Made by a program: the position numbers and the translations under genes. Source: Balanoglossus misakiensis (taxonomy: Eukaryota; Animalia; Hemichordata). Taken from it: a stretch of 64,000 bases of DNA. Below are positions 1 to 23,400 of this stretch, one piece after another. Position 1 is the stretch's first letter. Each line of letters begins with the position of its first letter. Location: assembly GCA_040954595.2 (NCBI GenBank), contig CM082585.2:3688902-3752901 (forward strand). The letters are read 5' to 3'. The notes beneath the pieces are model-generated. The model was given only the letters and a program-made list of their open reading frames with translations. It was not told the DNA's origin and did no database searches.

Positions 1-565
1 ATAACGCATAGGGATATGAGAACGGCGGGCGGAAAGCGGTCGCTGTCTGAGCTTCTCCGGCGAGACCTCGCACCAATCCCCGCCGAGTTAGAAAGGGAAC
101 TCGCGGTGTCGTCATTTAAGCAGGCGTGGTATATAACGCATAGGGATAGGAGAAGGACGGGTGGATTGTGGTCGTGTGTCTGAGCTTCTCCGGCGAGACC
201 TCGCACAAATCCCCGCCGAGTTAGAAAGGGAACTCGCTGTGTGGTTTGTTAAGCAGGCGTGGTATATAACGCATAAGGATAGGAGAAGGGCGGGCGGAAA
301 GCGGTCGCTTTTACGAGCTCCCCCGGCGAGACCTCGCTCAAATCCCCGACCAGTTAGAAAGGGAATTCGCTGTGTGGTTCTTTAAGCAGGCGTGGTATAT
401 AACGCATAGGGACAGGAGAGGACGGGTGGAAAGCGGTCGCTGTCTGAGCTAACCCGGCGAGACCTCGCACAAATCCCCGCCGAGTTAGAAAGGGAATTCG
501 CTGTGTGGTTCTTTAAGCAGGCGTGGTATATAACGCATGGGGAAAGGAGAAGGACGGGTGGATAG
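1..565. repeat. GC-rich tandem repeat, ~132-bp unit, >4 copies (runs off the window start)
   Basis: ATAACGCAT recurs at 1, 133, 266, 399 and 530 with a conserved body (GGCGAGACCTCGC...CCCCGCCGAGTTAGAAAGGGAA...AAGCAGGCGTGGTAT). Confidence 0.9.
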
Positions 566-1196
566 CAATTGTTCCGATGTATATTGGAATTGGAATTCGA
601 AAGTTGGTGAATTTCAACAACAGCAAAAAAATAATGCTTTTTGTGCACCATGGTTTCGTAAATAATGGGACAGTTCATCTGGTAAATGGAATTAGGCCTT
701 GTCACTTCATTGGCTCGGGTACTATTTTATGTTTCATTTCAATTTTAGCAACATTTCATGTTTCCCATTTCTTTAGAGAATTCCTTTTTTTCTATAAACA
801 AGTAATTTCTGCTTGCATAGTGCAAAAGGTGGTCGGTCATTTTCACCAAACCCAGTCATTTAGATGTGCGCAATCAAATTATCTGGGATAATATCAACAT
901 TTCAGATAATGGTAAGACTCTTTTTTCCCTAGTTGGATTCATTCAAATATTATGTTCAGGACATCGTTGATACCAACGGCGATTTTCTTCCACCTACTCT
1001 ATTGTTATATAAAACTCAAGAATAAGTCAAACTAGATTGTTGAATGGATAAAGTTGCGGAACCTTATTCCCATAGAATGGAAATCTGTGTTGAAAGGTAC
1101 TCAGTTGCATCAGATTCGTAGATTAAAGAATTTCATTCATGTCAATGGAAAACATTTGGTTTTACCTAAAGATCTGCCTCGCCTTACTTCATTTTT
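566..1196 (+). pseudogene. Degenerate non-LTR retrotransposon (L1/Tx1-like) ORF2 fragment, 5' part, split by the 14-kb insertion
   Basis: Broken frames give NQIIWDNINISDNGKTLF/PSWIHSNI and WIKLRNLIPIEWKSVLK, resembling the post-RT region of L1/Tx1 ORF2. The frame continues at 15250 once the insertion is removed. Confidence 0.7.
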
Positions 1197-1231
1197 AGTA
1201 GTATAGGTTGGAGCCGTAGCACTCTCATTTG

Positions 1232-1862
1232 GGGAGGAGGAGCTGAGGAGGAGCTGAGGAGGAGCTGAGGAGGAGGAGCTGAGGAGGAGGCGGAGGAGCT
1301 GAGGAGGAGCTGAGGAGGAGCTGAGGAGGAGGAGCTGAGGAGGAGGAGCTGAGGAGGAGGCGGAGGAGCTGAGGAGGAGCTGAGGAGGAGGAGCTGAGGA
1401 GGAGGCGGAGGAGCTGAGGAGGAGCTGAGGAGGAGCTGAGGAGGAGGAGCTGAGGAGGAGGCGGAGGAGGAGGAGCTGAGGAGGAGGCGGAGGAGGAGGA
1501 GGAGGAGCTGAGGAGGAGGAGCTGAGGAGGAGGAGGAGGAGGAGGAGCTGAGGAGGAGGAGGAGGAGCTGAGGAGGAGGAGGAGGAGGAGGAGGAGCTGA
1601 GGAGGAGGAGGAGGAGCTGAGGAGGAGGAGGAGGAGGAGGAGCTGAGGAGGAGGAGGAGGAGCTGAGGAGGAGGAGGAGGAGGAGGAGCTGAGGAGGAGG
1701 AGGAGGAGCTGAGGAGGAGGAGGAGGAGGAGGAGGAGCTGAGGAGGAGGAGGAGGAGCTGAGGAGGAGGAGGAGCTGAGGAGGAGCTGAGGAGGATGAGG
1801 AGGAAGAGGAGGATGAGGAGGAGGAGGAGGAGGAGGAGGCGGAGGAGGAGGAGGCGGAGGAG
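1232..1862. repeat. Subterminal (GAG)n tract with GCT/GCG interruptions, left arm
   Basis: Continuous GAGGAGGAGCTGAGG-type repeats starting ~35 bp inside the terminus. Confidence 0.95.
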
Positions 1863-2048
1863 GTGATGTTGGGAGGAGGTGATGAGAGGCGAAGGAGGCC
1901 TATCACCCATCACCAAGTTCGATTGTGACCCGAGTAGCGACCCGAGTAGCTGCCGCTGACGTCATCCCATTCTAGTTCGCATGCGCATAAGCGTAACCCG
2001 GGAGATTTCAAAAGAACGATACTAGCGTAGCAACCCATGTAAACAAAT

Positions 2049-3701
2049 ATGGCGACTGAGTTCGAAGATTTCTTGTTTTTGCGTACTTTTTTTGAGGATT
2101 TTGATGAATCTTTAGATTCTGCGGCAGTTTGGCAACTCCGAATAAATACTGCCATCATTGCCTCTCTGAGCTGTTTATTTTTGCGCCGAAAATACGTCCC
2201 GAAGATACAAAATTTTGCCGAAGATATCGTACCTCAGTATTCTTTGCAGGATTTTTGCATCCATTTCCGTATTTGCAAAGATATCTTCACGTTTGTTCTG
2301 GGTCGCATCGCCCACAAACTGGCAATAGAACAATGCGGTGGCCGCCCTCAAGTGCCTCCAGAAAAACAATTATTGGTATGGATTTGGTACATGGTAAACC
2401 AGGAATCCATCAGAGAAGTTGGTCACATTTTCAATCTCTCCAAATCCACAGTCCATTCAACAGTAAAGCGTGTCACAAAAGCTATCATTGCTGTGATGAA
2501 AGATGTAAGTACATTGTAAAGTACATTTTCTAGATTATCTTCATGGATTATTTTTGAATACAAATATATTTTAACATTTCAATAATATACAGTTGGTAAT
2601 GCATAATTTCAAGCTCTGTTTAATTATTGCTATCAAAGAACATATTAAAGGGGACAGTTAAAAATTATCCTTTAGCATTTTCTTTTAGTATTATGGTTCT
2701 CTGTGTCAACATTTTTTTTTTCTACTGCACTCTGTATAGCAAGCTGAAATGTCCAATATTATGTTTGTCATAATTGCAGGTATGTGTAAAAATTAATGTT
2801 GAAAAATGACATCAATATTTGTAGGTTATCAGGTGGCCAACACAAGAGCGACAGAGGGAGATTTCACAGAGTTTTCAGCTTGATTGTGGTTTACCAGGTA
2901 TAGTGGGCATTATTGATGGCACTCACATTAGACTGGCTGGTTGTATTGGTGGAGCTCAAGACTATATAAATAGGAAAGGTTATCCATCCATGCAACTTCA
3001 GGTAAGAAAATTCATTTTTAATTTTATAGAGAAAAATTTATATCTTCCATCATGACATGTGTCATTCTTGAATTTAAAAAATAAAACCTGTTGAAATGTT
3101 GGTTAGTCTCTGCCATTGAGAATTTTATCAAGTTACATAAATGTAGGAGATTCTTGACAAAAAGTGTCCTTTTTTTCAGGTCATTGTTGATGATAATCTA
3201 TTAATCACCAATGCATACACTGGATGGCCTGGTTGTACACACGATGCCCGTGTCCTTCGAAATTCTTCCCTGTACACAAGACTGGAGACTAATGAAGTAA
3301 CTATGGGTCCTGGGAGATACATCATTGGTGATTCTGCATACCCTTTGAGAGAATGGCTTATCACTCCCTTCAGAGACAATGGATTTTTAACCATTCAGCA
3401 GCGCAGGTTCAATCGCGTCTTTTCATCCTGCCGTCAAAATGTTGAACGATCAATTGGGCATTTAAAGGGTCGTGTTAGGAGGCTCAGAGAATTGCCTATG
3501 CATAGTCCTGAAGATGTGTGTGAGACTATAATTTCTGGCTGTATTCTTCACAATCTACGTATTATCCATCATGATGATGTGGAAAACTATATTGATTTAG
3601 ATCCACAGCATATTGATGATCCAAACCAATATCCAAATGTTCATGTGAATGCACCTGGGGGTATTGCCAGAAGACAGCAACTCATGAATCATTTACATTA
3701 A
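2049..3701 (+). CDS. PIF/Harbinger (HARBI1-like, DDE_Tnp_4) transposase, exons 2049-2504, 2825-3001, 3180-3701, 384 aa
   Basis: GT-AG introns join in frame. HTH region (QESIREVGHIFNLSKSTVH) and catalytic motifs IIDGTHI, YINRKG, GWPGCTHDARV, GDSAYPL, RQNVERSIGHLKGR and CILHN are present. Confidence 0.92.
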
Positions 3702-4663
3702 GAGTGTCAACATCATTAGGTATCTTAATGGATTGCCTTTCACACATGAAAATGAAACCTTTTTCTTGATTTAGTTATAAAAATAAGTTATGCACTGGGA
3801 TAAATGTTTTTTTATCATCTTGTTATGCATATTGTGTATTTGAAGTGTTAAGTGTGACTCTGGACATGAAATATTTATTGATTAAAATATATATGGTTAA
3901 GTCGACATTGAAGGATTCAAAGCCTGACTTTCTATTGCTGGTAACATTTTAAATGTACAATCTTACCTGGATAAAAAAAAAAAAAAACACACTTTATGTT
4001 TGTATATGATATAACAATTTATTGTAAAGGTTCAAATGTTTTTTAAAGATAAAGAATTCACTTTTATCCATCAATAATAATAATAGAATAAATATTATAG
4101 ACAATAAATACATTCATAAGTTATGCAATAATTACTTAATAAATAAAGAGTATCAATATATTAACTATAAACATTGAAAATGACTTTGCATTTTTACATT
4201 TGTTTTTCATAAGTTATGATGTAATAATTTCTAGTAATAAATAAAAAGTATCACATATTATTAACTATAAACATTGGTAATGACTTTTGAATTTTTACAT
4301 TTGTTTTTAAAGTTCAACGTCTTCATACATATAATACATACATACCATACATACATAAATGCCAACAGCAATGCTAATAAATTATTTGAGATTTTCAAAA
4401 TATTTTTTAAGGTTATCATGCGTACATGGAATAATTCTGATTAAAAATTGAGTTTGTCAAATAAAAAAAAAATAAAAAATCATCACGAACATGTAGTATG
4501 AACATATAACACTCCAATAAAATTTTAACAATTGTCCAGAAATTCAGATACTTCTACAACTATAACAGTATCAATGAAAACGTTTAGTAACAATAAACTT
4601 TATGAAATATTTCATTTAGATAAAACATTTTTGAATTTTGTCAAATTTATTATACGGTAATCT

Positions 4664-5532
4664 TTAGTTCTTATTGACAGACTGCTCGTATAAATCCAAC
4701 ATTCTATCCATTCTTCTCATTTTCTCTGTATGTTGTTTTTCCATCATCCCAAACAAATCATCATTTTTCTTTTCCATTTGTGTAATTGCAGCCATCAATT
4801 TATCTTGTGGGGATACTCTGTCGGATATTTTGTTTCTTTTTCTGTGTGTACGTGGTGTTGCATGTGTGTCAGATGTGCTTGGTGTTGCATGTGTGTCAGA
4901 TGTGCTTGGTGTTGCATGTGTGTCAGATGTGCTTGGTGTTATCTCTGTAGGTTCTGTAGTCGTCATTTCTGTTGTTGTTTCTGTCACTGTGTCTGTGTTA
5001 TTTTTACTTTTGTCGGTCGTCAAATCAAGCGAATCCATCGTACATGTGGGCTGTGTCGATTCCTTCATCCCATATAAATTATCAAACTCATTGAAATGTC
5101 GACACGTTTTCCTTTCTGCTCCAGTTTTCTTTCGGTTATCAATCACTTCCATATAATTTTTTTTTAAATTTTTCCATTTATCCCTTGCCTGTGTGACAGA
5201 CACAGAAACCCCCGCCTCTCCCATTTTAGACACAATGGACTGCCACAACTTCTCATGTCTAACACTAGTTTTAAATAAATCTTCCATGTCAGACCTCAAC
5301 ACTACAAGTAAATTTTCTTCTCTATCATTCCAAATGTGAATTCTAGCTACGTTTTCTGTGCTGTGTGATGTTGTTCCTGCTTTACTTGGTTCATGTGGTT
5401 GCTGAGTGTTTGTGTTCTTTTCACCTTGTCCTTGACTGCTTTGGTTCTGGTCGAGGTCTTGTACCTTTTCCTTTTGTTTTCCGTTGTGTGCTGCAATAGC
5501 TTGTGAAATGATAGCTTGTTTGATGTTAGAGT
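4664..5532 (-). CDS. Harbinger Myb/SANT (trihelix) DNA-binding partner protein, terminal exon only (first exon missing)
   Basis: Acceptor TTATATTTAACAG, then an open frame with HIWNDREENLLV...KLWQSIVSKM...QARDKWKNLKKNY...CRHFNEFD, a TPSTSDTHA x3 repeat and a C-terminal coiled coil. It converges on the transposase, as is typical of Harbingers. Confidence 0.85.
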
Positions 5533-5780
5533 CTGTTAAATATAAGAATGGGTATAGTCAAGACAAGTTTATTTCTATTTGCTCACCAAAACATGATTCT
5601 ATCAGATTAATTACTGTTGAACTTGAATCCTTAGTACATAAAACCAAAAATGAAATTATTTAATTATAGTTCAGCTTTGTAGAGATATTTAGACATTTTA
5701 CCACTTTTAGATGACCAACACAGAAAATATTTGTTTATAAACATAAGTGACGTGAGCGGACAATGCCTTAGACACACAGT

Positions 5781-5860
5781 CCCTAACCCTAACCCTAACC
5801 CCTAACCCTAACCCTAAGCCTAAAAGTGCATATAAATTGACGTAGGGGGGGGGGGGGGGT
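5781..5860. repeat. Interstitial telomeric (CCCTAA)n tract plus poly-G, left arm
   Basis: CCCTAACCCTAACCCTAACCCCTAACCCTAACCCTAAG, followed ~25 bp later by a G run; mirrored at ~10740-10816. Confidence 0.85.
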
Positions 5861-6299
5861 AAATTAGTCTTGTAAAATACTGTCTCTCTGAATGTATACC
5901 TAGAACAACAGGGAAGTATTTGGTATCAAAAGAAAGCTTAATAAACAAGCTTTCCATTAATTACAAAATTAAAGTGATATGACAAATCATGACATCATAG
6001 TGACGTCATAAGTTAAAATACCCTTACGAAAATGGTGTTCTGTTCACCTATAATTTGTATAAATGTGAGGTTTTGCAAAACACGTCTCTGAGCAATTGTA
6101 CTGATGAAAACTGTGATGTGTTTGGTATCAACAGAAAGCTGATTGAGTAAAGTATCTAATTATTGCAAAATATTGATATAATAATCAATTACGTCATCAT
6201 TACGTCATACTTCCAAGTACCCTTACCAATTAGTGACTATGATGACAAGTTATTACCCTAGGAGATAGGTGCCTTTAAATAAAAAAAAAAAATTGGTAA

Positions 6300-7941
6300 G
6301 GAAGGTTTGTGAAGTCCATTCTATGTAAAAAATGGTGCTGATTCCAAAAAAGTCAGTCTTATTGACCCCACCCAAGACAAAATTGCCATTTTGGCACTTT
6401 TTAACCCAAAAAAGGTCATTTTTAGAAAACACTAAAAGCACACTGTTTTCATCACATTCGAAGATCTGATGACATATGATGTGCCTATTCTATGTAAAAT
6501 TTGGTTGATATTACGAAAAAGGCAGTCTGACTGACCCCACCCAAGACAAAATTGCCGTTTTGGCACTTTTTAACCCAAAAAAGGTCATTTTTTACAAAAA
6601 AAAACTAAAAACAAACTGTTTTCTTCATATTCAGAGATCTGATGACATATGATATGCCTATTCTGTGTATAAAAAATCTGACTGACCCCAAACGAGACAA
6701 AATTGCCTTTTTGACCATTTTTTTGCCCAAAAACGTCATTTTTAGACAAAACTGAAAACACACTCTTCTCTTCATATTGATTGATTTGATGATATATGGA
6801 AAGTCAATTCTATGTGTAAAATGGTGACTATAAAACATAAAGCAATCTTTTTGACCCCAATCAATACAAAAATGCCATTTTTGGCCATATTTTTGAGGTC
6901 AAAAAAGGTCATTTTTACAAAAAAAAAAAAACTAAAAAACAAACTGTTTTCTTCATATTCAGAGATCATGTGATATATGAAAAGTTTATGCTATGTAAAA
7001 TAGTTCTGATTCCAGAAATAGCAGCCTTATTAACCCCCACTCAAGGCAAATGTGCCATTTTTGCCACTTTTTGTCCCAAAAATGTCATTTTTAGAAAACA
7101 CTCAAAACTTATATATTTTCTTCACTTTCGGAGATCTGATAATGTATTGTATACCCACCTTGTGTAAAATTTGGTAGGTATTCAAAAAAGTAGGTTTATT
7201 GGCGCCACTCAAGATTAAAGTGCGTTTTTTGGCAAGTTTTTGCCCAAAAAGGCCATTTTAAGAAATAAGCAAACGTTTTTCTTTGTATTTGGAAATTTGA
7301 TCATGTATGAAAAGTCCATTTATTGAAAAATTGCTGTTGACTCTAGAAAAAGCAATCTTATTGATCTCAATGAAGATGAAAATACTTTTTGCCCAAAAAG
7401 GGTCATTTTTAGAAAATACTAAAAACAAGCTATTTGTTTCCCTTTGGTGATCTAATAATAAATAAAAGTCCATTCTATCTTAAAATTAGCGATTTTTCCA
7501 AAAAAGCACTCTTACTGACTCCACAGAGGGAAAAAATGCCATTTTGGCCACTTTGCTCAAAAAAGGTAACTGTTTGAAAACTTCTTTCTTTATTTTCAGA
7601 TCTTATGATGTACGGAGAAGGTCCATATTTGTTGAATGGGAGCCGATTCCAAAAAAAAAAAAAAAAAAATCTTTTCAGCCCTACAAAATTGTCATTTTGG
7701 CCATTTTTGGTCAAAAAGGTCATTTCAAGAAAAAATGAAAAAACAAGCTGTTTTCTTCGTATTTAAATGTTTGATTATGAATGGAAAGTCCATTTTTTGC
7801 AAAAAATATGCTGATACCAACGCAACAGTCTTATTAAGACCCCACTCAATACAAAATTGCCACTAAGCCATCTTCTAGTCAACAATTGTCTTTTTTCAGA
7901 AAACAAAATAATTGGTGTTTTTTGCCTTTTGAGTTTTGATG
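6300..7941. repeat. Degenerate AT-rich tandem array (~170-180 bp units), inner part of left arm
   Basis: Recurring GACCCC...ACAAAATTGCCATTTT...AAAAAGGTCATTTTT...TTCTTCATATTC.GAGATCTGATG motifs. Confidence 0.7.
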
Positions 7942-8701
7942 TCGCCTGTATCATGTTTAATGCTTGGTCCTGGGCGACGTGTTTAGATTCATCGATGCGA
8001 CTTTGGTTCAATTTGTATACCTTCTTTTACTCTCGATGCTGTATCATCATCATTATGAGTTCAATTTGGGCTATCTCCAAATGCAAACATTTTTTTCTCT
8101 AGAAAATGTTTAAAATGATAAATTTGTCTTAAATAGTTCTTTTTAGGCAATAAATTGCCAAAAACGCAATTTTGACTAGAATGGGGTCAATCAGATTTTT
8201 TATACACAGAATGGACTTTTCATACAAAAAGACAGGCACTGCACATGGCAAAGTCACAAATATTCACTTAGAGCATCTCCAAATTGAAACGTCAAGGAAT
8301 TTAAGAGTTTTTAGTATATTTATTAGGTTTAAACCCACATTTTCCCGTTGTGTGCTAGTTCAGGGGCCAGTTTTAGCTCTATTGAGTATTTAGCATCGTG
8401 GGATTGCACCCCTGTCCAATCAAAATGACGGAGGTATCATGATATAATATAATTTCTGATTTTGTATTCAGAACGAAGAGGATAAATGTTAACAATCTAT
8501 CCGGAGCTGGTATAGATGTACTTAAAACAATTATACCATGTATAACCGACTTATAGTATACAGTGTGAATACATGGATCGTCTCGTTTTATTGTTGAGTT
8601 CCATTTTGGGCTAAATGTGCCAAATTGTGGCAACTCTGCCTTTCAATATCATCAATTCAACTGATATCATATGGTATGACATTTTAAACATGCAAATATA
8701 G
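7942..8701. other. Unique 760-bp spacer (loop) of the giant palindrome
   Basis: Arm identity stops at ...GAGTTTTGATG (7941) and resumes at CATCAAAACTC (8702); no credible ORF. Confidence 0.85.
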
Positions 8702-10300
8702 CATCAAAACTCAAAAGGCAAAAAACACCAATTATTTTGTTTTCTGAAAAAAGACAATTGTTGACTAGAAGATGGCTTAGTGGCAATTTTGTATTGAGTG
8801 GGGTCTTAATAAGACTGTTGCGTTGGTATCAGCATATTTTTTGCAAAAAATGGACTTTCCATTCATAATCAAACATTTAAATACGAAGAAAACAGCTTGT
8901 TTTTTCATTTTTTCTTGAAATGACCTTTTTGACCAAAAATGGCCAAAATGACAATTTTGTAGGGCTGAAAAGATTTTTTTTTTTTTTTTTGGAATCGGCT
9001 CCCATTCAACAAATATGGACCTTCTCCGTACATCATAAGATCTGAAAATAAAGAAAGAAGTTTTCAAACAGTTACCTTTTTTGAGCAAAGTGGCCAAAAT
9101 GGCATTTTTTCCCTCTGTGGAGTCAGTAAGAGTGCTTTTTTGGAAAAATCGCTAATTTTAAGATAGAATGGACTTTTATTTATTATTAGATCACCAAAGG
9201 GAAACAAATAGCTTGTTTTTAGTATTTTCTAAAAATGACCCTTTTTGGGCAAAAAGTATTTTCATCTTCATTGAGATCAATAAGATTGCTTTTTCTAGAG
9301 TCAACAGCAATTTTTCAATAAATGGACTTTTCATACATGATCAAATTTCCAAATACAAAGAAAAACGTTTGCTTATTTCTTAAAATGGCCTTTTTGGGCA
9401 AAAACTTGCCAAAAAACGCACTTTAATCTTGAGTGGCGCCAATAAACCTACTTTTTTGAATACCTACCAAATTTTACACAAGGTGGGTATACAATACATT
9501 ATCAGATCTCCGAAAGTGAAGAAAATATATAAGTTTTGAGTGTTTTCTAAAAATGACATTTTTGGGACAAAAAGTGGCAAAAATGGCACATTTGCCTTGA
9601 GTGGGGGTTAATAAGGCTGCTATTTCTGGAATCAGAACTATTTTACATAGCATAAACTTTTCATATATCACATGATCTCTGAATATGAAGAAAACAGTTT
9701 GTTTTTTAGTTTTTTTTTTGTTGTAAAAATGACCTTTTTTGACCTCAAAAATATGGCCAAAAATGGCATTTTTGTATTGATTGGGGTCAAAAAGATTGCT
9801 TTATGTTTTATAGTCACCATTTTACACATAGAATAGTGTGTTTTCAGTTTTGTCTAAAAATGACGTTTTTGGGCAAAAAAATGGTCAAAAAGGCAATTTT
9901 GTCTCGTTTGGGGTCAGTCAGATTTTTTATACACAGAATAGGCATATCATATGTCATCAGATCTCTGAATATGAAGAAAACAGTTTGTTTTTAGTTTTTT
10001 TTTGTAAAAAATGACCTTTTTTGGGTTAAAAAGTGCCAAAACGGCAATTTTGTCTTGGGTGGGGTCAGTCAGACTGCCTTTTTCGTAATATCAACCAAAT
10101 TTTACATAGAATAGGCACATCATATGTCATCAGATCTTCGAATGTGATGAAAACAGTGTGCTTTTAGTGTTTTCTAAAAATGACCTTTTTTGGGTTAAAA
10201 AGTGCCAAAATGGCAATTTTGTCTTGGGTGGGGTCAATAAGACTGACTTTTTTGGAATCAGCACCATTTTTTACATAGAATGGACTTCACAAACCTTCCT
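8702..10300. repeat. Mirror copy of the AT-rich tandem array, right arm (with a ~42-bp deletion near 9835)
   Basis: Reverse complement of 6300-7941. Confidence 0.7.
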
Positions 10301-10739
10301 TACCAATTTTTTTTTTTTATTTAAAGGCACCTATCTCCTAGGGTAATAACTTGTCATCATAGTCACTAATTGGTAAGGGTACTTGGAAGTATGACGTAAT
10401 GATGACGTATTTGAATATTATATCAATATTTTGCAATAATTAGATACTTTACTCAATCAGCTTTCTGTTGATACCAAACACATCACAGTTTTCATCAGTA
10501 CAATTGCTCAGAGACGTGTTTTGCAAAACCTCACATTTATACAAATTATAGGTGAACAGAACACCATTTTCGTAAGGGTATTTTAACTTATGACGTCACT
10601 ATGATGTCATGATTTGTCATATCACTTTAATTTTGTAATTAATGGAAAGCTTGTTTATTAAGCTTTCTTTTGATACCAAATACTTCCCTGTTGTTCTAGG
10701 TATACATTCAGAGAGACAGTATTTTACAAGACTAATTTA

Positions 10740-10816
10740 CCCCCCCCCCCCTACGTCAATTTATATGCACTTTTAGGCTTAGGGTTAGGGTTAGGGGTTA
10801 GGGTTAGGGTTAGGGA
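10740..10816. repeat. Poly-C plus (TTAGGG)n tract, right arm
   Basis: Mirror of 5781-5860. Confidence 0.85.
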
Positions 10817-11063
10817 CTGTGTGTCTAAGGCATTGTCCGCTCACGTCACTTATGTTTATAAACAAATATTTTCTGTGTTGGTCATCTAAAAGTGGTAAAA
10901 TGTCTAAATATCTCTACAAAGCTGAACTATAATTAAATAATTTCATTTTTGGTTTTATGTACTAAGGATTCAAGTTCAACAGTAATTAATCTGATAGAAT
11001 CATGTTTTGGTGAGCAAATAGAAATAAACTTGTCTTGACTATACCCATTCTTATATTTAACAG

Positions 11064-11932
11064 ACTCTAACATCAAACAAGCTATCATTTCACAAGCTAT
11101 TGCAGCACACAACGGAAAACAAAAGGAAAAGGTACAAGACCTCGACCAGAACCAAAGCAGTCAAGGACAAGGTGAAAAGAACACAAACACTCAGCAACCA
11201 CATGAACCAAGTAAAGCAGGAACAACATCACACAGCACAGAAAACGTAGCTAGAATTCACATTTGGAATGATAGAGAAGAAAATTTACTTGTAGTGTTGA
11301 GGTCTGACATGGAAGATTTATTTAAAACTAGTGTTAGACATGAGAAGTTGTGGCAGTCCATTGTGTCTAAAATGGGAGAGGCGGGGGTTTCTGTGTCTGT
11401 CACACAGGCAAGGGATAAATGGAAAAATTTAAAAAAAAATTATATGGAAGTGATTGATAACCGAAAGAAAACTGGAGCAGAAAGGAAAACGTGTCGACAT
11501 TTCAATGAGTTTGATAATTTATATGGGATGAAGGAATCGACACAGCCCACATGTACGATGGATTCGCTTGATTTGACGACCGACAAAAGTAAAAATAACA
11601 CAGACACAGTGACAGAAACAACAACAGAAATGACGACTACAGAACCTACAGAGATAACACCAAGCACATCTGACACACATGCAACACCAAGCACATCTGA
11701 CACACATGCAACACCAAGCACATCTGACACACATGCAACACCACGTACACACAGAAAAAGAAACAAAATATCCGACAGAGTATCCCCACAAGATAAATTG
11801 ATGGCTGCAATTACACAAATGGAAAAGAAAAATGATGATTTGTTTGGGATGATGGAAAAACAACATACAGAGAAAATGAGAAGAATGGATAGAATGTTGG
11901 ATTTATACGAGCAGTCTGTCAATAAGAACTAA
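11064..11932 (+). CDS. Harbinger Myb/SANT protein, terminal exon, second copy
   Basis: Same translation as 4664-5532. Confidence 0.85.
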
Positions 11933-12894
11933 AGATTACCGTATAATAAATTTGACAAAATTCAAAAATGTTTTATCTAAATGAAATATTTCATAAAGTT
12001 TATTGTTACTAAACGTTTTCATTGATACTGTTATAGTTGTAGAAGTATCTGAATTTCTGGACAATTGTTAAAATTTTATTGGAGTGTTATATGTTCATAC
12101 TACATGTTCGTGATGATTTTTTATTTTTTTTTTATTTGACAAACTCAATTTTTAATCAGAATTATTCCATGTACGCATGATAACCTTAAAAAATATTTTG
12201 AAAATCTCAAATAATTTATTAGCATTGCTGTTGGCATTTATGTATGTATGGTATGTATGTATTATATGTATGAAGACGTTGAACTTTAAAAACAAATGTA
12301 AAAATTCAAAAGTCATTACCAATGTTTATAGTTAATAATATGTGATACTTTTTATTTATTACTAGAAATTATTACATCATAACTTATGAAAAACAAATGT
12401 AAAAATGCAAAGTCATTTTCAATGTTTATAGTTAATATATTGATACTCTTTATTTATTAAGTAATTATTGCATAACTTATGAATGTATTTATTGTCTATA
12501 ATATTTATTCTATTATTATTATTGATGGATAAAAGTGAATTCTTTATCTTTAAAAAACATTTGAACCTTTACAATAAATTGTTATATCATATACAAACAT
12601 AAAGTGTGTTTTTTTTTTTTTTTATCCAGGTAAGATTGTACATTTAAAATGTTACCAGCAATAGAAAGTCAGGCTTTGAATCCTTCAATGTCGACTTAAC
12701 CATATATATTTTAATCAATAAATATTTCATGTCCAGAGTCACACTTAACACTTCAAATACACAATATGCATAACAAGATGATAAAAAAACATTTATCCCA
12801 GTGCATAACTTATTTTTATAACTAAATCAAGAAAAAGGTTTCATTTTCATGTGTGAAAGGCAATCCATTAAGATACCTAATGATGTTGACACTC

Positions 12895-14547
12895 TTAATG
12901 TAAATGATTCATGAGTTGCTGTCTTCTGGCAATACCCCCAGGTGCATTCACATGAACATTTGGATATTGGTTTGGATCATCAATATGCTGTGGATCTAAA
13001 TCAATATAGTTTTCCACATCATCATGATGGATAATACGTAGATTGTGAAGAATACAGCCAGAAATTATAGTCTCACACACATCTTCAGGACTATGCATAG
13101 GCAATTCTCTGAGCCTCCTAACACGACCCTTTAAATGCCCAATTGATCGTTCAACATTTTGACGGCAGGATGAAAAGACGCGATTGAACCTGCGCTGCTG
13201 AATGGTTAAAAATCCATTGTCTCTGAAGGGAGTGATAAGCCATTCTCTCAAAGGGTATGCAGAATCACCAATGATGTATCTCCCAGGACCCATAGTTACT
13301 TCATTAGTCTCCAGTCTTGTGTACAGGGAAGAATTTCGAAGGACACGGGCATCGTGTGTACAACCAGGCCATCCAGTGTATGCATTGGTGATTAATAGAT
13401 TATCATCAACAATGACCTGAAAAAAAGGACACTTTTTGTCAAGAATCTCCTACATTTATGTAACTTGATAAAATTCTCAATGGCAGAGACTAACCAACAT
13501 TTCAACAGGTTTTATTTTTTAAATTCAAGAATGACACATGTCATGATGGAAGATATAAATTTTTCTCTATAAAATTAAAAATGAATTTTCTTACCTGAAG
13601 TTGCATGGATGGATAACCTTTCCTATTTATATAGTCTTGAGCTCCACCAATACAACCAGCCAGTCTAATGTGAGTGCCATCAATAATGCCCACTATACCT
13701 GGTAAACCACAATCAAGCTGAAAACTCTGTGAAATCTCCCTCTGTCGCTCTTGTGTTGGCCACCTGATAACCTACAAATATTGATGTCATTTTTCAACAT
13801 TAATTTTTACACATACCTGCAATTATGACAAACATAATATTGGACATTTCAGCTTGCTATACAGAGTGCAGTAGAAAAAAAAAATGTTGACACAGAGAAC
13901 CATAATACTAAAAGAAAATGCTAAAGGATAATTTTTAACTGTCCCCTTTAATATGTTCTTTGATAGCAATAATTAAACAGAGCTTGAAATTATGCATTAC
14001 CAACTGTATATTATTGAAATGTTAAAATATATTTGTATTCAAAAATAATCCATGAAGATAATCTAGAAAATGTACTTTACAATGTACTTACATCTTTCAT
14101 CACAGCAATGATAGCTTTTGTGACACGCTTTACTGTTGAATGGACTGTGGATTTGGAGAGATTGAAAATGTGACCAACTTCTCTGATGGATTCCTGGTTT
14201 ACCATGTACCAAATCCATACCAATAATTGTTTTTCTGGAGGCACTTGAGGGCGGCCACCGCATTGTTCTATTGCCAGTTTGTGGGCGATGCGACCCAGAA
14301 CAAACGTGAAGATATCTTTGCAAATACGGAAATGGATGCAAAAATCCTGCAAAGAATACTGAGGTACGATATCTTCGGCAAAATTTTGTATCTTCGGGAC
14401 GTATTTTCGGCGCAAAAATAAACAGCTCAGAGAGGCAATGATGGCAGTATTTATTCGGAGTTGCCAAACTGCCGCAGAATCTAAAGATTCATCAAAATCC
14501 TCAAAAAAAGTACGCAAAAACAAGAAATCTTCGAACTCAGTCGCCAT
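12895..14547 (-). CDS. PIF/Harbinger transposase, second copy, exons 14547-14092, 13771-13595, 13416-12895
   Basis: The ORF-track translations are identical to the left-arm copy. Confidence 0.92.
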
Positions 14548-14732
14548 ATTTGTTTACATGGGTTGCTACGCTAGTATCGTTCTTTTGAAATCTCCCGGGT
14601 TACGCTTATGCGCATGCGAACTAGAATGGGATGACGTCAGCGGCAGCTACTCGGGTCGCTACTCGGGTCACAATCGAACTTGGTGATGGGTGATAGGCCT
14701 CCTTCGCCTCTCATCACCTCCTCCCAACATCA

Positions 14733-15208
14733 CCTCCTCCGCCTCCTCCTCCTCCGCCTCCTCCTCCTCCTCCTCCTCCTCCTCATCCTCCTCATCCTCC
14801 TCTTCCTCCGCATCCTCCTCAGCTCCTCCTCAGCTCCTCCTCCTCCTCAGCTCCTCCTCCTCCTCAGCTCCTCCTCCTCCTCCTCCTCCTCAGCTCCTCC
14901 TCCTCAGCTCCTCCTCCTCCTCCTCCTCCGCCTCCTCCTCAGCTCCTCCTCCTCCGCCTCCTCCTCAGCTCCTCCTCCTCAGCTCCTCCTCAGCTCCTCC
15001 TCAGCTCCTCCTCAGCTCCTCCGCCTCCTCCTCAGCTCCTCCTCCTCAGCTCCTCCTCAGCTCCTCCTCAGCTCCTCCGCCTCCTCCTCAGCTCCTCCTC
15101 CTCAGCTCCTCCTCCTCAGCTCCTCCTCAGCTCCTCCTCAGCTCCTCCGCCTCCTCCTCAGCTCCTCCTCCTCAGCTCCTCCTCAGCTCCTCCTCAGCTC
15201 CTCCTCCC
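14733..15208. repeat. Subterminal (CTC)n tract, right arm, ~156 bp shorter than the left copy
   Basis: Mirror of 1232-1862. Confidence 0.95.
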
Positions 15209-15249
15209 CAAATGAGAGTGCTACGGCTCCAACCTATACTACTATTTTT

Positions 15250-15800
15250 TTACAATATTTTTGTGCAAAATCGCTCTATTCGTCCACTTTGTGAAAGTAC
15301 ATGGAATCATCGCTTGACTATGAGTACTTCATTACAGTGGAGAACTATATGGGTTAACCAAACGACTGGATTGCGTTGTGATTGAAAACTTGCTGAATTT
15401 AACTTCAAGATTATGCATAACATTTTGCCATGCGGCATCAATCTTTTAAGACGGAATATTAGTAAAAATGATCAATGTTGTCTTTGTAATGTAACTGATT
15501 CTTATGAGCATCTATTTTTAAAAATTCAACGTTTGGGGGATTTTTGGCAGCGTATTTCTACTTTGCTCAGCAAACTTGGCATATGTCATTGGGTGAATTT
15601 AGAAACTGTTATTCTTGGTTACAAAACTATGTAAAGTCATCCTCTTTATAGTTTTGTAAACATTGTCATTACTATTGCAAAGAATTGTGAATCAGCTTCA
15701 TGGGTCCATTTACAACATAGGAAAACCAATTTCGATATATTTTACAGATATCTACAATTTATGTAACAACTACTCAATACTATTTTTTTATCAAAACACG
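15250..15800 (+). pseudogene. L1/Tx1-like ORF2 C-terminal fragment (zf-RVT-like region), continuing 566-1196
   Basis: YNIFVQNRSIRPLCESTW...QWRTIW...*KLAEFNFKIMHNILPCGINL...QCCLCNVTDSYEHLF...FWQRI, with stops and frameshifts. Confidence 0.8.
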
Positions 15801-15939
15801 ATATATCTATATGATACATGTAACATTAACTTATATTAAATGAATGCATAACATTTGTTAAAAAACAAAATCTTGCAAACTACAACAATATCTTTTAACG
15901 AAATGTTAATATGTTGAACATTTGGAATATATCGCACAT

Positions 15940-16485
15940 CGCAACAGAGTAAAAATATAGTACGGAACATATTACACCACTACTGAAGAGATTGCACTGG
16001 CTTCCTATACAGAAACGAATTTATTTTAAAATCATTTGTTTAACCTACAAAGTTTTAAATAATATGGCTCCGCAGTACCTGAAGGAGGTCATATTGTATT
16101 CGTTCTTCTGTCCGTAACCTTCGTTCTACCACTGATTGTTCTTTTATTCTGGATCATCCCAAAGTTAACACAGTCTTTTATGGTGACAGGTCATTCTCTA
16201 CAGGAGCACCACGGTTGTGGAATAAGCTACCGGTTCCACTCCGTAGCAGTGAGAATTTTAATGTTTTTAAATCCAACCTTAAACCGTTTTTATTCAGGGA
16301 ATGACTTTTTATCCCAATTTTAACTATTGTCTATTTTATTATACATTTTTAGCATTTTATTTGTCTTTGTATTTTTAAGCAGCTATGTACAGCGCGTTGG
16401 GATGTCATTTTACTTGGAAAGCGTTTTTTTAATAATTAAATACTATTATTGTTATTATTAAATACTATTATTATTATTATTTTAT
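15940..16485 (+). mobile_element. 3' end of an L2/CR1-group LINE with an (ATT)n tail
   Basis: EHITPLLKRLHWLPIQKRIYFKIICLTYKVLNNMAPQYL and YGDRSFSTGAPRLWNKLP, followed by an AAATACTATTATTATT tail. Confidence 0.8.
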
Positions 16486-17483
16486 TTTGCAAAACTGTCT
16501 ATGATCATACATGTATAGAGGTCAAGAACCTTTATGTAAGTCGGAAGTTTGGATGTTAACAGTTAAGAGTGATCTAGGTGATGAAACAAATGTTATTTTG
16601 AAAAGCTGATTACTTCACAAATAGCAGGACCTGGAAATGTCAATCAACTAATGAACTTTATAATTTTATGAAGTACACTTGTATTATTTTGAATTAAGTA
16701 CTAGGCGGTGGTGTTTATGTATGATGGTTGCCAGTCCTTGTATTTAATCACCATGGTTTAGTCGTGATCTCGATAGTGATAATTTTTCTAATTTTTTTCT
16801 TCTACGATTTACGCCAATGAATGACAGCCAATCCGAGGAATACGTGGTTGTGTTATAATTTGTAATTGAACAATCAAGAATGAGCTGATGTATTGTAAGT
16901 TTATAATTGAACAATACTGATCACGCTATGATGAATCTTTAATTTCTTTTTATTCTGAAAGGGTTATAAGCTCTGTAAATTCTTGTTCTAAGGAAGGCCA
17001 CGACAGTGCAGTGACAACTTCGTGTTGCAACGCCTCTCCAATAGCAATAAAAGTCTTTATAGGACTTCCACTACTCGGTGTCTCAGCGTGTCTCTACTTT
17101 GGTAGATCCCATCCCACCTCTTTGCACCAGCAAAGTCAGAATAAAGTCCCAGCCAAACCAGCAGTAGGCCTAACACGGTATACATAACGTAAAGCTGTAA
17201 CAATGATCAGATTGCGACTTAGCTCTGCGTACAGGTCTGTGTGTTCCCGTTGTTACACGGCCTCCACCACAAAGACCTGCACGCAGCTGAGATACAAATG
17301 TTATTGCGACTGTGCATTCTCCAAACATACTACTATACTAGCGTGGGCAATTTTAATATAGCTAGAGAGTCTGACCAGGGTCTGCTGCGGTCAGACTCCT
17401 TAGGTTACATGTGCGTGCGTCGGCCTTGTGCATGTAATGTTTTGATCCTGTGACCATGACGTCATACTTTAGCGCTTGACAAA

Positions 17484-20400
17484 ATGGCGGCGGAGATACG
17501 CGAGAAACCTGGGCCTCGAAGGCCCGTCCTGACAAACAAGCTGGAGGGCTGTAACGACACTGTTAATAAGGCTGTAATTTTACCTAAAGAAGACGGAATA
17601 ATCAGTGTTAGCGATGATAGGTAAGTATTTTGATGGGATAATTTAAAAATGCCACTGTGACTTTCTTTCTTTAGGTTACCTGAGCACGCGAAAGGGAAAT
17701 GCACAACCCTATGTAGTTATCAACAATGCTACAGTTCTTATATTACTGAATCATGTGTTCTCAGTTGTAGCCCAGAATTGATGAGTGTATATGTCGTAAG
17801 ATTATACCTATTATACCACAAACATTTGTATTGTCCTAAACAAAAGATCGCATAGTTGATAACACATATAACGTCTCTAGTCGAGTCGGGATTTCCTGTC
17901 TGACGTGGTAAAGCTAAAGGGGCGGGTACAACTGTCCAAATCAGCAATATGCGGTTGATGGAAATTCGTAGAATGTGGCGACGAGTTTACCCCAGTTACG
18001 TATTGGCACGTTTCCACGGTGATGTAAATATTGCTAGTACCACACCGCCACGTCCATGGTGGTACTGGTAGTGGTAGTACAACTCACAGGCGCAGCTGAC
18101 TACAGCTACTACAGTTGTGGTTGTCAAAGCCCCTCCAACGAGGGCGTCATCAGCATTGGCATTGTACTATCACTCCTGTGTCATGGGTGAACAACAGTCA
18201 CTCCTCTGTCAGTGTTGAAAACTGGAAAAAACATTTGCCAGACATCTCTCACTGCCCTTTTCCCATTATGTTTGATACAAGAGACGGTTTATGTTAATGT
18301 ACTTTCATGTGTATATGTAGTGAATGAACGTTCAACCACACACAACTTCCATCCGACATGAGAGTAAAAATCTCGCCAAAATGAATAAACGGTAAACACC
18401 GATTATTCATTTTGGCGAGTTTTTCGCTTTGGTGTCTACAAGTGGGATGTGGCTGTCAAGAAGTCAGTGGTCCTTGAGAGAGTGTAATCTTCTCGACCTC
18501 CTAACATATTACTGTTAGTGTTACTGATCAAGATACAAGCTTGACATATTTCCTAACAAATCCCCTGCCTTAACGCTAATTGTTTTATTATAATATTATT
18601 TCAGAACAATTCGAGTGTGGTTGAAGAGAGACAGTGGCCAGTATTGGCCGAGTATATGTCACAGCATGCCAGGTGAGTTTTAGTATGCTTAGTAGTGAAA
18701 TATTCTTCTCAGCAATTCAAGTCGGGATGTAGAAAATACTTAATGGAGAATACGGAAATAAATAAAATAGACTGAACGTTTGTTTCCCTTTAACACCACT
18801 GCAGTGTTCTCTCCAGGTTTTTTTTTTGACAAGAGGGTGTAGATAGTCGTATTACCGATTATCATTTTTCCCAGCGAGCTTTGCGCGTCAGGGATATAGT
18901 TTACTTCCGGTTTATATTCAGATTTTCGCGGGTCACTGAGAACAGCTGTCACAACAAACACAATGGGTCAATACGACTTCTGTTGCGTGCCCCAGTGCCC
19001 TCGAAAACGAAAAAGGGATGGCGGAGAGTATTATTCATTTCCCTGTACCCCATTATCGAGACGAAATGCGTGGATACGCGCTGTCAACAGAGAATTACCC
19101 GGGAGCAAAAAGCGTTGGCAGCCAAGCAAGTGGTCGAAAGTGTGTAATATTCACTTCGTTAATTACAAGAAATCTGACGACCCGGGGTCCGAATCGTACA
19201 TCCCAACGGTATTTCCATGGAAGGAAATGACGAAAAGTCGCCGCGTTCTGATTCGAAGGAACAACAAAAGCGTGGATAAGAAGTTAAAAAAACGTGAAAC
19301 CGTAAGTACCGCTTTTAAAATTGCTGGTGTCAACATTTTTTTATAGTCCCACACCGCCGCAGCGTACAGCTTTTGTATGGCTTCTATTTTGCAAAATAAC
19401 CGAAACCACAGTTCCTCTCTGCCAATACAAACGTAACATTGATTGGTGTTACTGTTTAAATAAGCATCTAAAAGATACTTTTCCGCGAATTTCATTTTTT
19501 TGAAATTATATTTTCCCGCCAATTTTTGTCTTCGGTGCTTAAATTTATCAATGTGGTAACAATTCATTTACTATTTAACTGTGAATGTTGAACCATGTTT
19601 ATTTTTTTACTACCTCTGAAACGTTAAAACATACTTTATAATTTACAGGGTGAGTCCAGTAGGGAAAGTACAGCAGTCAGTGATGATGAGCTGCAAAATT
19701 CTTCAATTGTAAATAAGGTAAATTTTTGCAATTTAATTTATAATTTAAATGGGGGGGGGGGGGTTTCGTTTGAAGCTTGATGTTCCCAAACTTAACCTAA
19801 AGTAAATAGATGTCAACAAATTATTGTTGTATGTTGGGTTGAAGCTTGGTGTTCCCAAACTTGACCTGCAGTACAGATGTCAACAAATTATTGTTGTATA
19901 ATTTTCAATGTTTGTACCCCCTGCAATTGTTTTACACAATCTAATACTGGTTTTGTTTTAAGTAACATTAATTTATTTTTTTAATAGTTGGACTAACTTA
20001 CCTTATTCAATGTACTACTATAATAAAATATGGGAATTCAACCATATCATGTTTTATTCTTTCTGTATTTCAGATGCCTATTGCGTTACGTGAGCACGAT
20101 TATGTGAAATCATCAATTGATATGAAATCCGTGGAATCTATGCAAACTATCAAAGATAAGCATCCTGATCTGTATGCAGAGTTTGAACGTTTGAAAGATG
20201 AAAATACCAGTCTATCTCAACAACTGGATGAAACTAAAGAGAAACTCTTGAGTATTGACACCATTGTTAATAATGACAAAGAGACTGTTTATTGGACTGG
20301 ATTTGCAAATTACGCTGTATTTAAATCGGTTTATGACTATTTAGAACCAAAGGCAGAGCGTTTACAATATTGGCGTGGTGAGAAAGACACACATTTTAGT

Positions 20401-23400
20401 CATTACCACAAATCCTCGAGTCACAAGAAACCAGGACCAAGTCGAAAGTTATATTTATTAGAGGAGTTCTTTTTAATTTTAGTTAAATTGAAAACTGGTC
20501 TTCAAATTCATGATTTAGCTAAGCGTTTTGGGGTAGGGGAGGGAACAATATCTCGAATTTGCAACACCTGGATTCCATTTTTAAGCCGAGAGTTTTCTAT
20601 AATTTTTACTATGCCCACTAATGAAGAGTTGATAGACAGCCGTTGTAGGGCATTCTCCAAGTATCCTCATACCAGAGTTGTGATTGATTGCACTGAAGTT
20701 TTTTCTGAAACTCCTTCTGCAATACATGCAAAACAACAGGTGTGGAGTGACTACAAACATCATGATACGTTTAAATTTCTTGTCGGTATAGGACCAAATG
20801 GGGCTATTAATTATGTTTCTGATATGTGGGGAGGGAGGGCTTCGGACAAATGCATTACTAAACGCAGTGATTTTTTGAATTATTTACAAGTAGGTGATGA
20901 TGTGATGGCAGATAGAGGTTTTGATTTAGAAGTAGAATTAGCCACTGTTGGCGCATCACTTAATATTCCTGTCTTTAAGGGTGACCGTGCACAAATGCAC
21001 CCAGAAGAACTTGAAAAATCAAGACGAATATCGGAAGCACGCATCCACATTGAACGGGCTATCAGCAGGATAAAGAATTTTCACATCTTTGACAGTGAAA
21101 TTAAACTCACCATGAAGGATACAGCTAAACATATATTTATTGTTTGTGCCTTTCTTGTTAATTTCCAATCTCCTTTTCTCAAAGATTAATTACATGAGTT
21201 TACAGTTTACATGTAGTATTTTCATTGTGTATCTTACCATGTCAAACATAGTCCTTATCCTATTCACATAATTTTAAAGTTATTTTCTTGAAATGAATAT
21301 GCATTTTCTCTGTTATATGAACAGACATGCAATTAATGAATTCTTATGTTCATAATAACATTTAAGGTGAATTCAGTTAAGATATGCAATTTTCATTGGT
21401 CACAAGTACATGCAACTGTTAATAGGAAAGTGACTGGATGTATGAGTGGAAAGCACATAACTCAAACTGTAAACTCTGAAATTGTAAACTATTATAAATT
21501 GAAGCTTCACAACACCAACAGTTATTTTTTATATTTTTTTATTATCCAGGTAGTAACTAACATGGATTTAAAATTAAAATGTATGTACAGAAATATTATT
21601 CTCATTTTATACCAACAAATTACACATCAACAATCTTGGTATGCTCCATGGAAACATTTTCACATATTGAAGTTGAGCTTATATGGTATTGTAAAATATA
21701 ATTGTATCAGAATACAGTATGGTCTCACCATGTCAAATAAATACAAGTTTTTATTGACAACTCGATTTGCTATTGTGTATTCATTTATGTTAAAAAATAT
21801 TGCATTTTTGTATTAGCTCTATTATCAGCGCATGCGTTTACAGCCAAAATAAACTTATTTTTTTGATCCAGAGTACAATAAGTTTTGTTGAAATGTGCTT
21901 CTAATAGATATGTGCTTCCAATAGAGCAAAACATTGTAATTACTGAGGCACGACTTTATTTTCTCTATTAGAAGGCATGTACCTAAATTTCTCTAGACTT
22001 TCTAGTGATCTAAATTTCATCATAAAGGCATTTAAATTGAAAATGCACATCACTGTTTTAGAGCAAATATGGTAAATGGTTATACGCAACAGTGTTTTAC
22101 AATAGTTTACGCTACTGCCCAGGGTGATGCATAAAAATACACCAAAATTTGGAGAAAGGGTATAGCTAATTATGGAGTGCCCTTGAAATTTTTGTTTGAA
22201 TTACATGAGAAAAGGTACATAAAAGGCCTACTTAAATTAAACAAAACGTGCTACGGTCCAATTAGCAGAGCTGTGCCACCCTAAGCTCCTATTTTTTTTG
22301 GGTGGAGTATACAATTTTTGTCATAGAATAACCATGCTCCATTTTCAAATTGTGCTATTAGATTCAGTTATGAAACATGAAAGATGTTTTTTCATAAGAT
22401 GTGTTCTAATTTCATCTAATTTTGTGCTTGTGAAGTCAAGGATGATTGTATTATGACAACTGTTGTACTCACTTAGACCCCCAGGATTTTATTCCATGGT
22501 TAAACCCCTGAATAACAGCTAAGCATTGATGCCCTAGTTTTTGCAACTTGAATGTAGGCAATGTCTTTTGTAGCAGCCTAATACAGTACTAGTAAACACT
22601 TGGGCGTGAATAAGCAGCAAGTTGAATTTTTGTGAACAAAATTAAGTGAGCAAAATTGTGCAAATTAAGCATTTTGCTAACCAAATCAGATAAGCAATCC
22701 AGGTTGTAAACAGTGAGCAAAATTTCTCTTGAAACAGATTAAAGGTTGACCAGTTCAAATTTGAGTTTTTTCACATAAAATACATGATCTTGAGTAGTTT
22801 ATTTTACATTTTCTTTTTCATTACAACGACACATGTATTTCCAGGTTACACAAAAACACCCAATATTAAGGCCCTCTTCTGTTTCATTAGTTAATTTTGC
22901 TCGCCATGTCTAATAAGCATTTCTTATCTGTTTTGGTTAGCAACATTTTACTTACTTGCACATTTCTGATCACCAAATTTAGCTCAACATAATTTAGCTA
23001 ACTGAATTTTGCTCAACATTTACCTACCCTCTAAACACTTAAATCACTGGTATTCTGCTCAATACTTATACTTGTAAATTGAATTAGGGTAAAGTTGCTT
23101 ACCCCTCTTCACTCTTTCAGTAAATAGTTCAGGAACAACACCGTTCACAAAGAAATCCTGAACTTTACTACACATAACTGAATAGAAAGCAGAATCAAAG
23201 TTAACTCGTTCAACATGTATTTGATAACCATCATCACCTAGATCATCATCTATTAATACTACCACACAAAAGTCACACCATGTACGCTTGGTTATACCCA
23301 TAGCAGCTTGAATTTGATAGTAATATTCATGCTTCTGATTCATACTAAGTAGCGATTTATCAATATCATGAACCAGGTAAAATGACTTCCCCCTATTCCT

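Follow-up and report, generated by a model that had tools for sequence, protein, structure and literature searches.

How a transposable element that is inverted repeat over almost its whole length, and that bears genes of another transposon superfamily in both arms, could have arisen and moved is the question raised by a locus of the hemichordate Balanoglossus misakiensis. The locus lies in a stretch of 64,000 nucleotides (assembly GCA_040954595.2, contig CM082585.2, positions 3,688,902 to 3,752,901 of the forward strand), here called the window, and all positions below refer to it. The element (1197-15243) can be explained, with a probability of roughly 70%, as a helper-dependent palindromic derivative of a Maverick (Polinton), the arms of which were copied onto each other, duplicating a broken Harbinger insertion.

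A global alignment of the two arms shows that 94.6% of the 14,047 bp of the element is inverted repeat (Table 1). The boundaries of the arms and of the 760-bp loop given in a preliminary description of this DNA, which had put the inverted repeat at about 95%, proved exact in this alignment, and the termini AGTAGT..ACTACT with flanking ATTTTT were borne out as well. Outside the GAG-rich microsatellite (1815-7941 compared) the arms are 99.95% identical, with only three substitutions (6184, 6189 and 6921), all inward of 5845; over 4,030 bp they show no difference. The unequal lengths of the arms are due to the microsatellite (1233-1863), to the loss from the right arm of 42 bp corresponding to 6765-6806, and to the lengths of two homopolymers. 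No protein-primed DNA polymerase (pPolB), integrase, ATPase or capsid gene, all reported absent in the preliminary description, was present among the 55 open reading frames (ORFs) of at least 100 aa in the window, nor was any matched by the 26 ORF pieces scanned against Pfam; no Maverick core gene, the protease included, was found in the element. Seven ORF pieces of the loop and the inner arm, as well as one antisense ORF at the transposase start, gave no Pfam match, and Rfam gave none across positions 1-16500. The window was also compared with three public runs (X1, X2 and X3), which consist of contigs assembled from a single sample that may be the source itself; contig depth does not equal copy number, and all depth ratios are rough. 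X3 yielded no match. No RNA data set containing this DNA was listed, which carries no information on its expression.

Table 1. Positions of the element, of its target locus and of a neighbouring transposon in the window.
Feature	Position	Strand	Basis or remark
Decayed LINE (long interspersed nuclear element) ORF2, left half (target locus)	633..1191	+	tblastn of homolog P0026
Left target-site duplication ATTTTT	1191..1196	+	
Left arm (giant terminal inverted repeat)	1197..7941	+	6,745 bp; global arm alignment
Unique terminus opening with (AGT)2, multi-copy in the sample	1197..1232	+	published motif and contig depth
GAG/GAGCT-rich microsatellite	1233..1863	+	length and pattern unlike between the arms
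Harbinger-type (PHIS) DDE transposase	2049..3701	+	exons 2049-2504, 2825-3001, 3180-3701; DDE_Tnp_4 E 1e-25
Myb/SANT-like gene, exon 2 alone	4664..5532	-	Myb_DNA-bind_4 E 1e-16
(CCCTAA)n run, inferred joint of the Harbinger piece to the high-copy inner arm	5781..5823	+	
Inner arm, high-copy, with diverged tandem units of ~150-175 bp at about 6300-7910	5824..7941	+	
Loop without recognisable gene	7942..8701	.	760 bp; Pfam scan of ORFs and contig matches
Right arm, mirroring the left and closing in (ACT)2	8702..15243	-	6,542 bp; arm alignment
Myb exon 2, mirror copy	11064..11932	+	
Transposase gene, mirror copy	12895..14547	-	
Right target-site duplication ATTTTT	15244..15249	+	
Same LINE ORF2, right half (zf-RVT region)	15245..15772	+	P0026 residues 312-493
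THAP (ISL2EU-like element)	18900-19346	+	
DDE_Tnp_4 (ISL2EU-like element)	19972-21189	+	
YqaJ (ISL2EU-like element)	23059-24381	-	
SAP-domain ORF (ISL2EU-like element)	25261-26019	-	

The element interrupts a LINE. In tblastn the LINE homolog P0026 matches the left flank with residues 120-253 at 633-1019 and residues 220-310 at 922-1191; there the match stops, and it resumes with residues 312-493 at 15245. The zf-RVT domain of the right flank has an E value of 8e-6, marginally below the Pfam cut-off. Excision of the element together with one copy of the 6-bp repeat leaves a single in-frame LINE alignment of 274 columns, which is moderate evidence because this LINE copy carries further frameshifts and stops. 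The adjacency of the two halves is strong evidence for a true insertion, and the element is a genuine insertion into a dead retrotransposon. One piece of the LINE flank (727-923, ~92% identical) is common to a high-copy repeat: it is matched by contigs at 100-140x the depth of the flank, with a loose end at 727.

Among vertebrate Mavericks, the commonest end is (AGT)2//(ACT)2 with a perfect 6-bp target-site duplication (TSD), the terminal inverted repeats (TIRs) are 46-1,447 bp long, and intact elements measure 12.7-24.6 kb and carry eight core genes (PMC8097293; statements on this and all other cited works refer to the accessible part of each source). The Maverick motif is either (AGT)2//(ACT)2 or (AG)3//(CT)3; the present element carries the former, and with the ends set at 1197 and 15243 the 6-bp ATTTTT is the only duplication that fits, the chance match of a given 6-mer at the local composition being 0.0005. 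The duplication, seen at this one copy, thus has the Maverick length, and the alternative of a TAG end with a 4-bp duplication is disfavoured indirectly by the contigs. Two 42-bp contigs of X2 begin exactly at 1197, at depths of 2025 and 1792, where the flank has 21.9. Contigs of a de Bruijn graph begin where the preceding base varies; T1196 therefore probably belongs to the target and not to the element, and these contig starts favour the AG end over ends read as TAG or TA. A variant exactly at 1227 would confound this argument; a full-depth shared 31-mer over 1196 would, however, require 87,784 depth-letters in the bin, where 79,892 remain (48 pieces outside those listed), a shortfall that speaks against the confound and, indirectly, against an invariant T at 1196. 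The ends belong to a multi-copy family. Maverick-type ends with a 6-bp duplication, as proposed in the preliminary description, are therefore supported by the published motif, by the contig starts and by the duplication itself. Short matches to the terminus in five stretches of viral contigs (17-mer) and eight of metagenome contigs (18-mer) were set aside as chance, the next 18 bases agreeing at only 5-9 positions in 13 of 13.

With arms of 6,745 and 6,542 bp against a Maverick TIR range of about 50-1,450 bp, and without the core genes, the element fails as an autonomous Maverick; it fails as a Harbinger by its TIRs, its TSD and the lack of a whole Myb gene. Its very long TIRs, internal tandem repeats and the lack of an own transposase for these ends are those of foldback elements, and in its workings it would correspond to a non-autonomous Maverick built as a foldback. 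The Repbase rule for a non-autonomous member asks for the same TSD length and terminal bases 1-11, with one mismatch allowed (PMC4455052), and the comparison with a known Maverick family covered only the 6-base published motif. Dependence on a helper in trans, as also suggested earlier, is likely.

The arms had been described as carrying a Harbinger gene pair as cargo. The transposase half of this claim stands: the gene has an open frame of 384 aa in three exons with GT-AG introns, an intact-looking DDE motif set, and 81% identity over 384 aa to a protein of equal length from Ptychodera flava (P0001), the species that also provides the nearest named relative of the Myb gene. One codon of a conserved motif (3558-3560) is unlike that of 21 of 25 homologs and of the matched contig, and the two arms share it. 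None of three candidate stretches in viral contigs was confirmed as a relative of the transposase. The Myb gene, on the other hand, is a fragment. Its closest homolog, P0027 (63% identity), matches over residues 40-309, starting at the splice acceptor; residues 1-39 reach a score of 22 against 5536-8701, where 200 shuffles average 28.9 and 199 of them score at or above it, and a top score of 35 anywhere in the window. As these residues score below the shuffled mean while six of six control pieces score 94-196, exon 1 is absent from the window, and the gene lacks its promoter as well.

Three scans of 1198-2048 against 5560-8701 yielded no TWA-flanked pair of Harbinger TIRs, and none of the three TWA sites between the left end of the element and the transposase start has a partner. 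Two inverted matches (1965/8186 and 2040/7635) were discarded as chance, being short and flanked by non-TWA 3-mers. Of the features of PIF/Harbinger elements, the DDE transposase is thus present, and a complete Myb/SANT gene, TIRs of 25-50 bp and a 3-bp TWA duplication are absent. In vitro, Harbinger transposition requires both the transposase and the Myb gene (PMC9179366), and with a Myb gene lacking exon 1 and promoter, and no TIR pair, the piece in these arms most likely travels passively, neither as working cargo nor as mobiliser. The neighbouring microsatellite (1233-1863) is rich in CTGAG, a sequence that fits the target of NuwaII (C|TNA|G) and includes that of NuwaI (CWG) (PMC4482050); it could attract PHIS insertions, and no insertion boundary was found there. 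The AT-rich segment between the two Harbinger genes (3618-4441) has 78x the flank depth in X2, more than either gene, which is unusual for deletion derivatives and may reflect library bias.

The relation of the arms to each other is informative about their origin. Of the arm positions at which matched contigs depart from the window, 30 were checked, and in all 30 the two arms share the same 21-mer (these come from the 40 rows listed, the other 10 lying in the loop; 33 further rows are outside the listing). The arms thus did not arise by two separate insertions, and they are closer to each other than to the other contigs of the family. Copying of the arms from each other, implied by the copy-back-like derivative suggested earlier, is in this way supported by the 30 agreements together with the arm alignment. 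The three substitutions and the 42-bp deletion are all confined to the inner third (nominal P 0.014-0.04, for a boundary chosen post hoc), weakly suggesting a more recent copying of the outer part, where the Harbinger piece lies.

For Polintons, a single-stranded racket intermediate with priming at short terminal tandem repeats has been proposed (PMC4196379). In the present element, the protein-primed polymerase of a helper might start at the (AGT)2 ends, and the displaced strand would snap back to form a stem of ~6.5 kb with a 760-nt loop, the racket or panhandle intermediate. Repair or copy-back on this strand could carry sequence changes across between the arms. A Harbinger-type transposon may have entered one arm and lost its right end when the (CCCTAA)n run within intron 1 of Myb recombined, after which the truncated copy would have been transferred to the second arm; the 6-bp duplication would be the work of the helper's integrase. 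An element that is nearly all stem would require only its ends in cis.

Contig depth varies along the element. Relative to the flank contig, single contigs reach ~144-174x at the ends, 67-229x in the loop and 11-31x in the Harbinger genes, as rough values, and the summed depth climbs steeply at the (CCCTAA)n run (contigs matched to 1870-8760). An X1 contig of 1,496 bp matches 4911-5771, and its remaining 633 letters have no listed match. Positions 5772-5830 were masked in contig matching, and a continuation of 570 bp would rank among the longest listed pieces. It appears that free or different Harbinger copies run on through Myb intron 1, whereas the present arm passes into the inner repeat family at the telomere-like (CCCTAA)n run; it is also possible that the X1 contig continues beyond 5771 in the element at less than 90% identity. 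The adjoining segment 5576-5769 also occurs, at ~90%, in a different repeat family, represented by two contigs (429 and 886 bp) that are unlike on either side.

The junction of loop and right arm (8701/8702) is spanned by contigs at depths of 1497 and 5021, and other contigs join 7940-7943 to 8224-8227 across opposite strands (depths 1088 and 1458). The latter joints imply that 7943-8224 is inverted in the window relative to the high-depth copies; the inversion is bounded by 3-bp microhomologies. A joint of 2393 to 6636 in X2, considered as a deletion derivative, was too weak to be accepted (depth 694, with a shorter side of 21 letters).

Several observations count against a helper-dependent Maverick derivative with mutually copied arms. 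The only TSD observed lies within a T-run, and shifted ends fit too, TAG..CTA with TTTT (or TTT) and GTAG.. with TA; the caution about a T-rich target in the preliminary description thus holds on the arm alignment. The TAG end with 4 bp yields an identical empty site, and the empty site under the 6-bp duplication is one codon shorter than the homolog; the TA duplication leaves one codon too many, and with 3 bp the LINE frame is shifted. Among the listed contig pieces (1,991 more are unlisted), none has the window's own 7941/7942 junction, and no listed piece spans the element or joins the left flank to its end (bins 1127-1195 are uncovered). Between X1 and X2 the depth of the inner-arm bins varies by as much as sixfold, and single contigs of ~170-bp units are deeper than the element ends, so that the inner arm may in part be a separate repeat family. 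Assembly polishing may inflate the apparent likeness of the arms. No helper was found; in the viral and metagenome contigs searched, the terminal 17-mer and 18-mer, respectively, matched by chance alone. Finally, the panhandle is the standard model for restoring the homology of terminal repeats in adenovirus and PRD1, one for which the accessible text reports no direct evidence (PMC11886824).

Among the other explanations, a one-off chimera survives best, and even so is improbable. In it, a piece with Maverick ends, a fragment of a Harbinger and a high-copy foldback or satellite of unrelated origin would have been joined a single time, doubled by one copy-back and inserted by a Maverick integrase, which would mean that no palindromic satellite family exists here. 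Such an origin would account for the three depth regimes along the arm with their junction at the (CCCTAA)n run, and for the confinement of the arm differences to the inner third; the loop rearrangement is compatible with a two-switch copy-back using microhomologies of 2-3 bp. However, the rough depth ratios of ends and loop are similar, the junction of loop and arm is crossed by high-depth contigs, and one inversion of 283 bp accounts more simply for both loop junctions.

An assembly artefact, in which a foldback read or a mis-resolved repeat made or extended the second arm, is quite unlikely. It would explain the identity of the arms across 4,030 bp and the gaps in listed contig coverage of the element, its left flank junction and the 7941/7942 junction, but the symmetry ends exactly at the Maverick motif and a direct 6-bp duplication, between consecutive halves of a LINE. 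A foldback artefact would not be expected to break off at an established terminal motif flanked on both sides by a direct repeat, and the arms differ in the 42-bp deletion, the three substitutions and the structure of the microsatellite.

Slightly less probable again is a cut-and-paste foldback of another superfamily, moved by the transposase of that superfamily, either with TAG..CTA ends and TTTT (AcademX-like) or with TA..TA ends (IS3EU/GingerRoot-like). Academ elements end in TAG, the inverted repeat reaches one base further (T/A), TTTT fits, and the 4-bp duplication with TAG..CTA ends agrees with AcademX at this copy. AcademX duplications are 3-4 bp long, and IS3EU elements have TA..TA ends with a 6-bp TSD (PMC10045372). 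Nevertheless, the terminal contigs begin at 1197, the depth sum speaks against an invariant T, and a 3-bp duplication breaks the LINE frame; for IS3EU, the required 6-bp TSD fails (CATTTT against TTTTTT), as only duplications of 1-4 bp fit at 1196/15244. That the whole element is a giant Harbinger-type unit mobilised by the transposase it encodes is very improbable: the transposase is the only open gene and its DDE motif set looks intact, but no PHIS-type TSD (TWA, AT, ANT, CWG, TNA in the accessible text of PMC4482050) fits the ends, no TWA-flanked TIR pair lies within the arm and Myb exon 1 is missing.

The remainder of the window contains other mobile elements. An ISL2EU-like element at 18245-27135, with the gene set described in PMC4482050 (Table 1), has inverted ends of ~200 bp (18245-18449 and 26908-27117, 80%) and contains a complex tandem array of 25/39/118-bp units (24463-24957). 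Several direct and inverted copies of its end sequence, including a 148-bp tandem pair, are found at 59063-60686 and are probably non-autonomous derivatives. A retroelement at 53680-58052 (minus strand), the gene order of which we take to be DIRS/Ngaro-like, encodes a zf-CCCH gag-like ORF (489 aa) and reverse transcriptase and RNase H-like ORFs. A DDE_1 (pogo/Tigger-type) transposase fragment (48393-48833, minus strand), an exon-like piece of a WD40-repeat host gene with weak Pfam matches (30395-30757, plus strand) and a GC-rich tandem array with no Rfam match (1-566; 133-bp unit, 4.3 copies, truncated by the window start) were also identified.

The racket or panhandle step of Mavericks is a model without direct evidence, and a nearly all-panhandle element with markers shared between its arms makes it testable. 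An arm should resemble its partner in the same element more than the arms of other elements, and a new insertion should be found in both arms, the duplicated Harbinger fragment being a marker for arm-to-arm copying. A bolder and rather doubtful extension is that the element represents an undescribed class of snap-back Maverick satellites, kept at ~14 kb, close to the genome size of the helper, through packaging in the helper's capsid, which would double any insertion in their arms and ferry the transposase of another superfamily between loci and hosts. If so, the Harbinger piece would serve both as stuffer DNA maintaining the size of the element and as a mobile transposase source on which free Harbinger copies, themselves providing the Myb protein, could draw, and packaging would give ordinary DNA transposons a route to hitch-hike on virus-like elements. 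If not packaged, the element would still be a clear case of a foldback element derived from a Maverick, and not from Mutator or P.

The literature search found no paper on nearly complete palindromic Maverick derivatives, which Repbase entries, subscription papers or supplements (such as the lists of elements that accompany PMC8097293) may contain; none is mentioned in the accessible parts of a review of giant transposons (PMC6431247), a survey of Anolis (PMC3014272), a preprint on Caenorhabditis elegans Polintons (10.1101/2024.01.15.575659) and the adintovirus paper (PMC8502044). Like vertebrate Mavericks (PMC8097293), the element has (AGT)2//(ACT)2 ends, a perfect 6-bp TSD and, at 14.0 kb, a length within their range, whereas its TIRs of 6.5-6.7 kb exceed the 46-1,447 bp reported, none of the eight core genes is present and 95% of it is palindrome. 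With the PIF/Harbinger group (PMC9179366, PMC4482050) it shares a convergent pair of DDE transposase and Myb/SANT gene, but not a pair of 25-50-bp TIRs, a 3-bp TSD or Myb exon 1, and the piece, which may belong to Harbinger proper or to Nuwa, is a fragment lodged in another element. It resembles the foldback elements Tetris, Galileo and FB in being non-autonomous, with very long TIRs and internal tandem units that are abundant genome-wide; Tetris has TSDs of 8-10 bp and was assigned to Mutator (PMC4079207), in contrast to the Maverick ends and 6-bp TSD found here. The cargo-bearing Mavericks of nematodes likewise hold intron-containing foreign genes within Maverick ends, and a cut-and-paste transposon (MULE) was proposed to have entered one of them; they carry a single cargo between the TIR and the integrase and are largely complete (bioRxiv 10.1101/2022.07.12.499685), while here the foreign piece lies within the repeat, and hence twice, in an element without core genes. 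What the Balanoglossus element itself adds is a duplicated, truncated transposon fragment within its arms.

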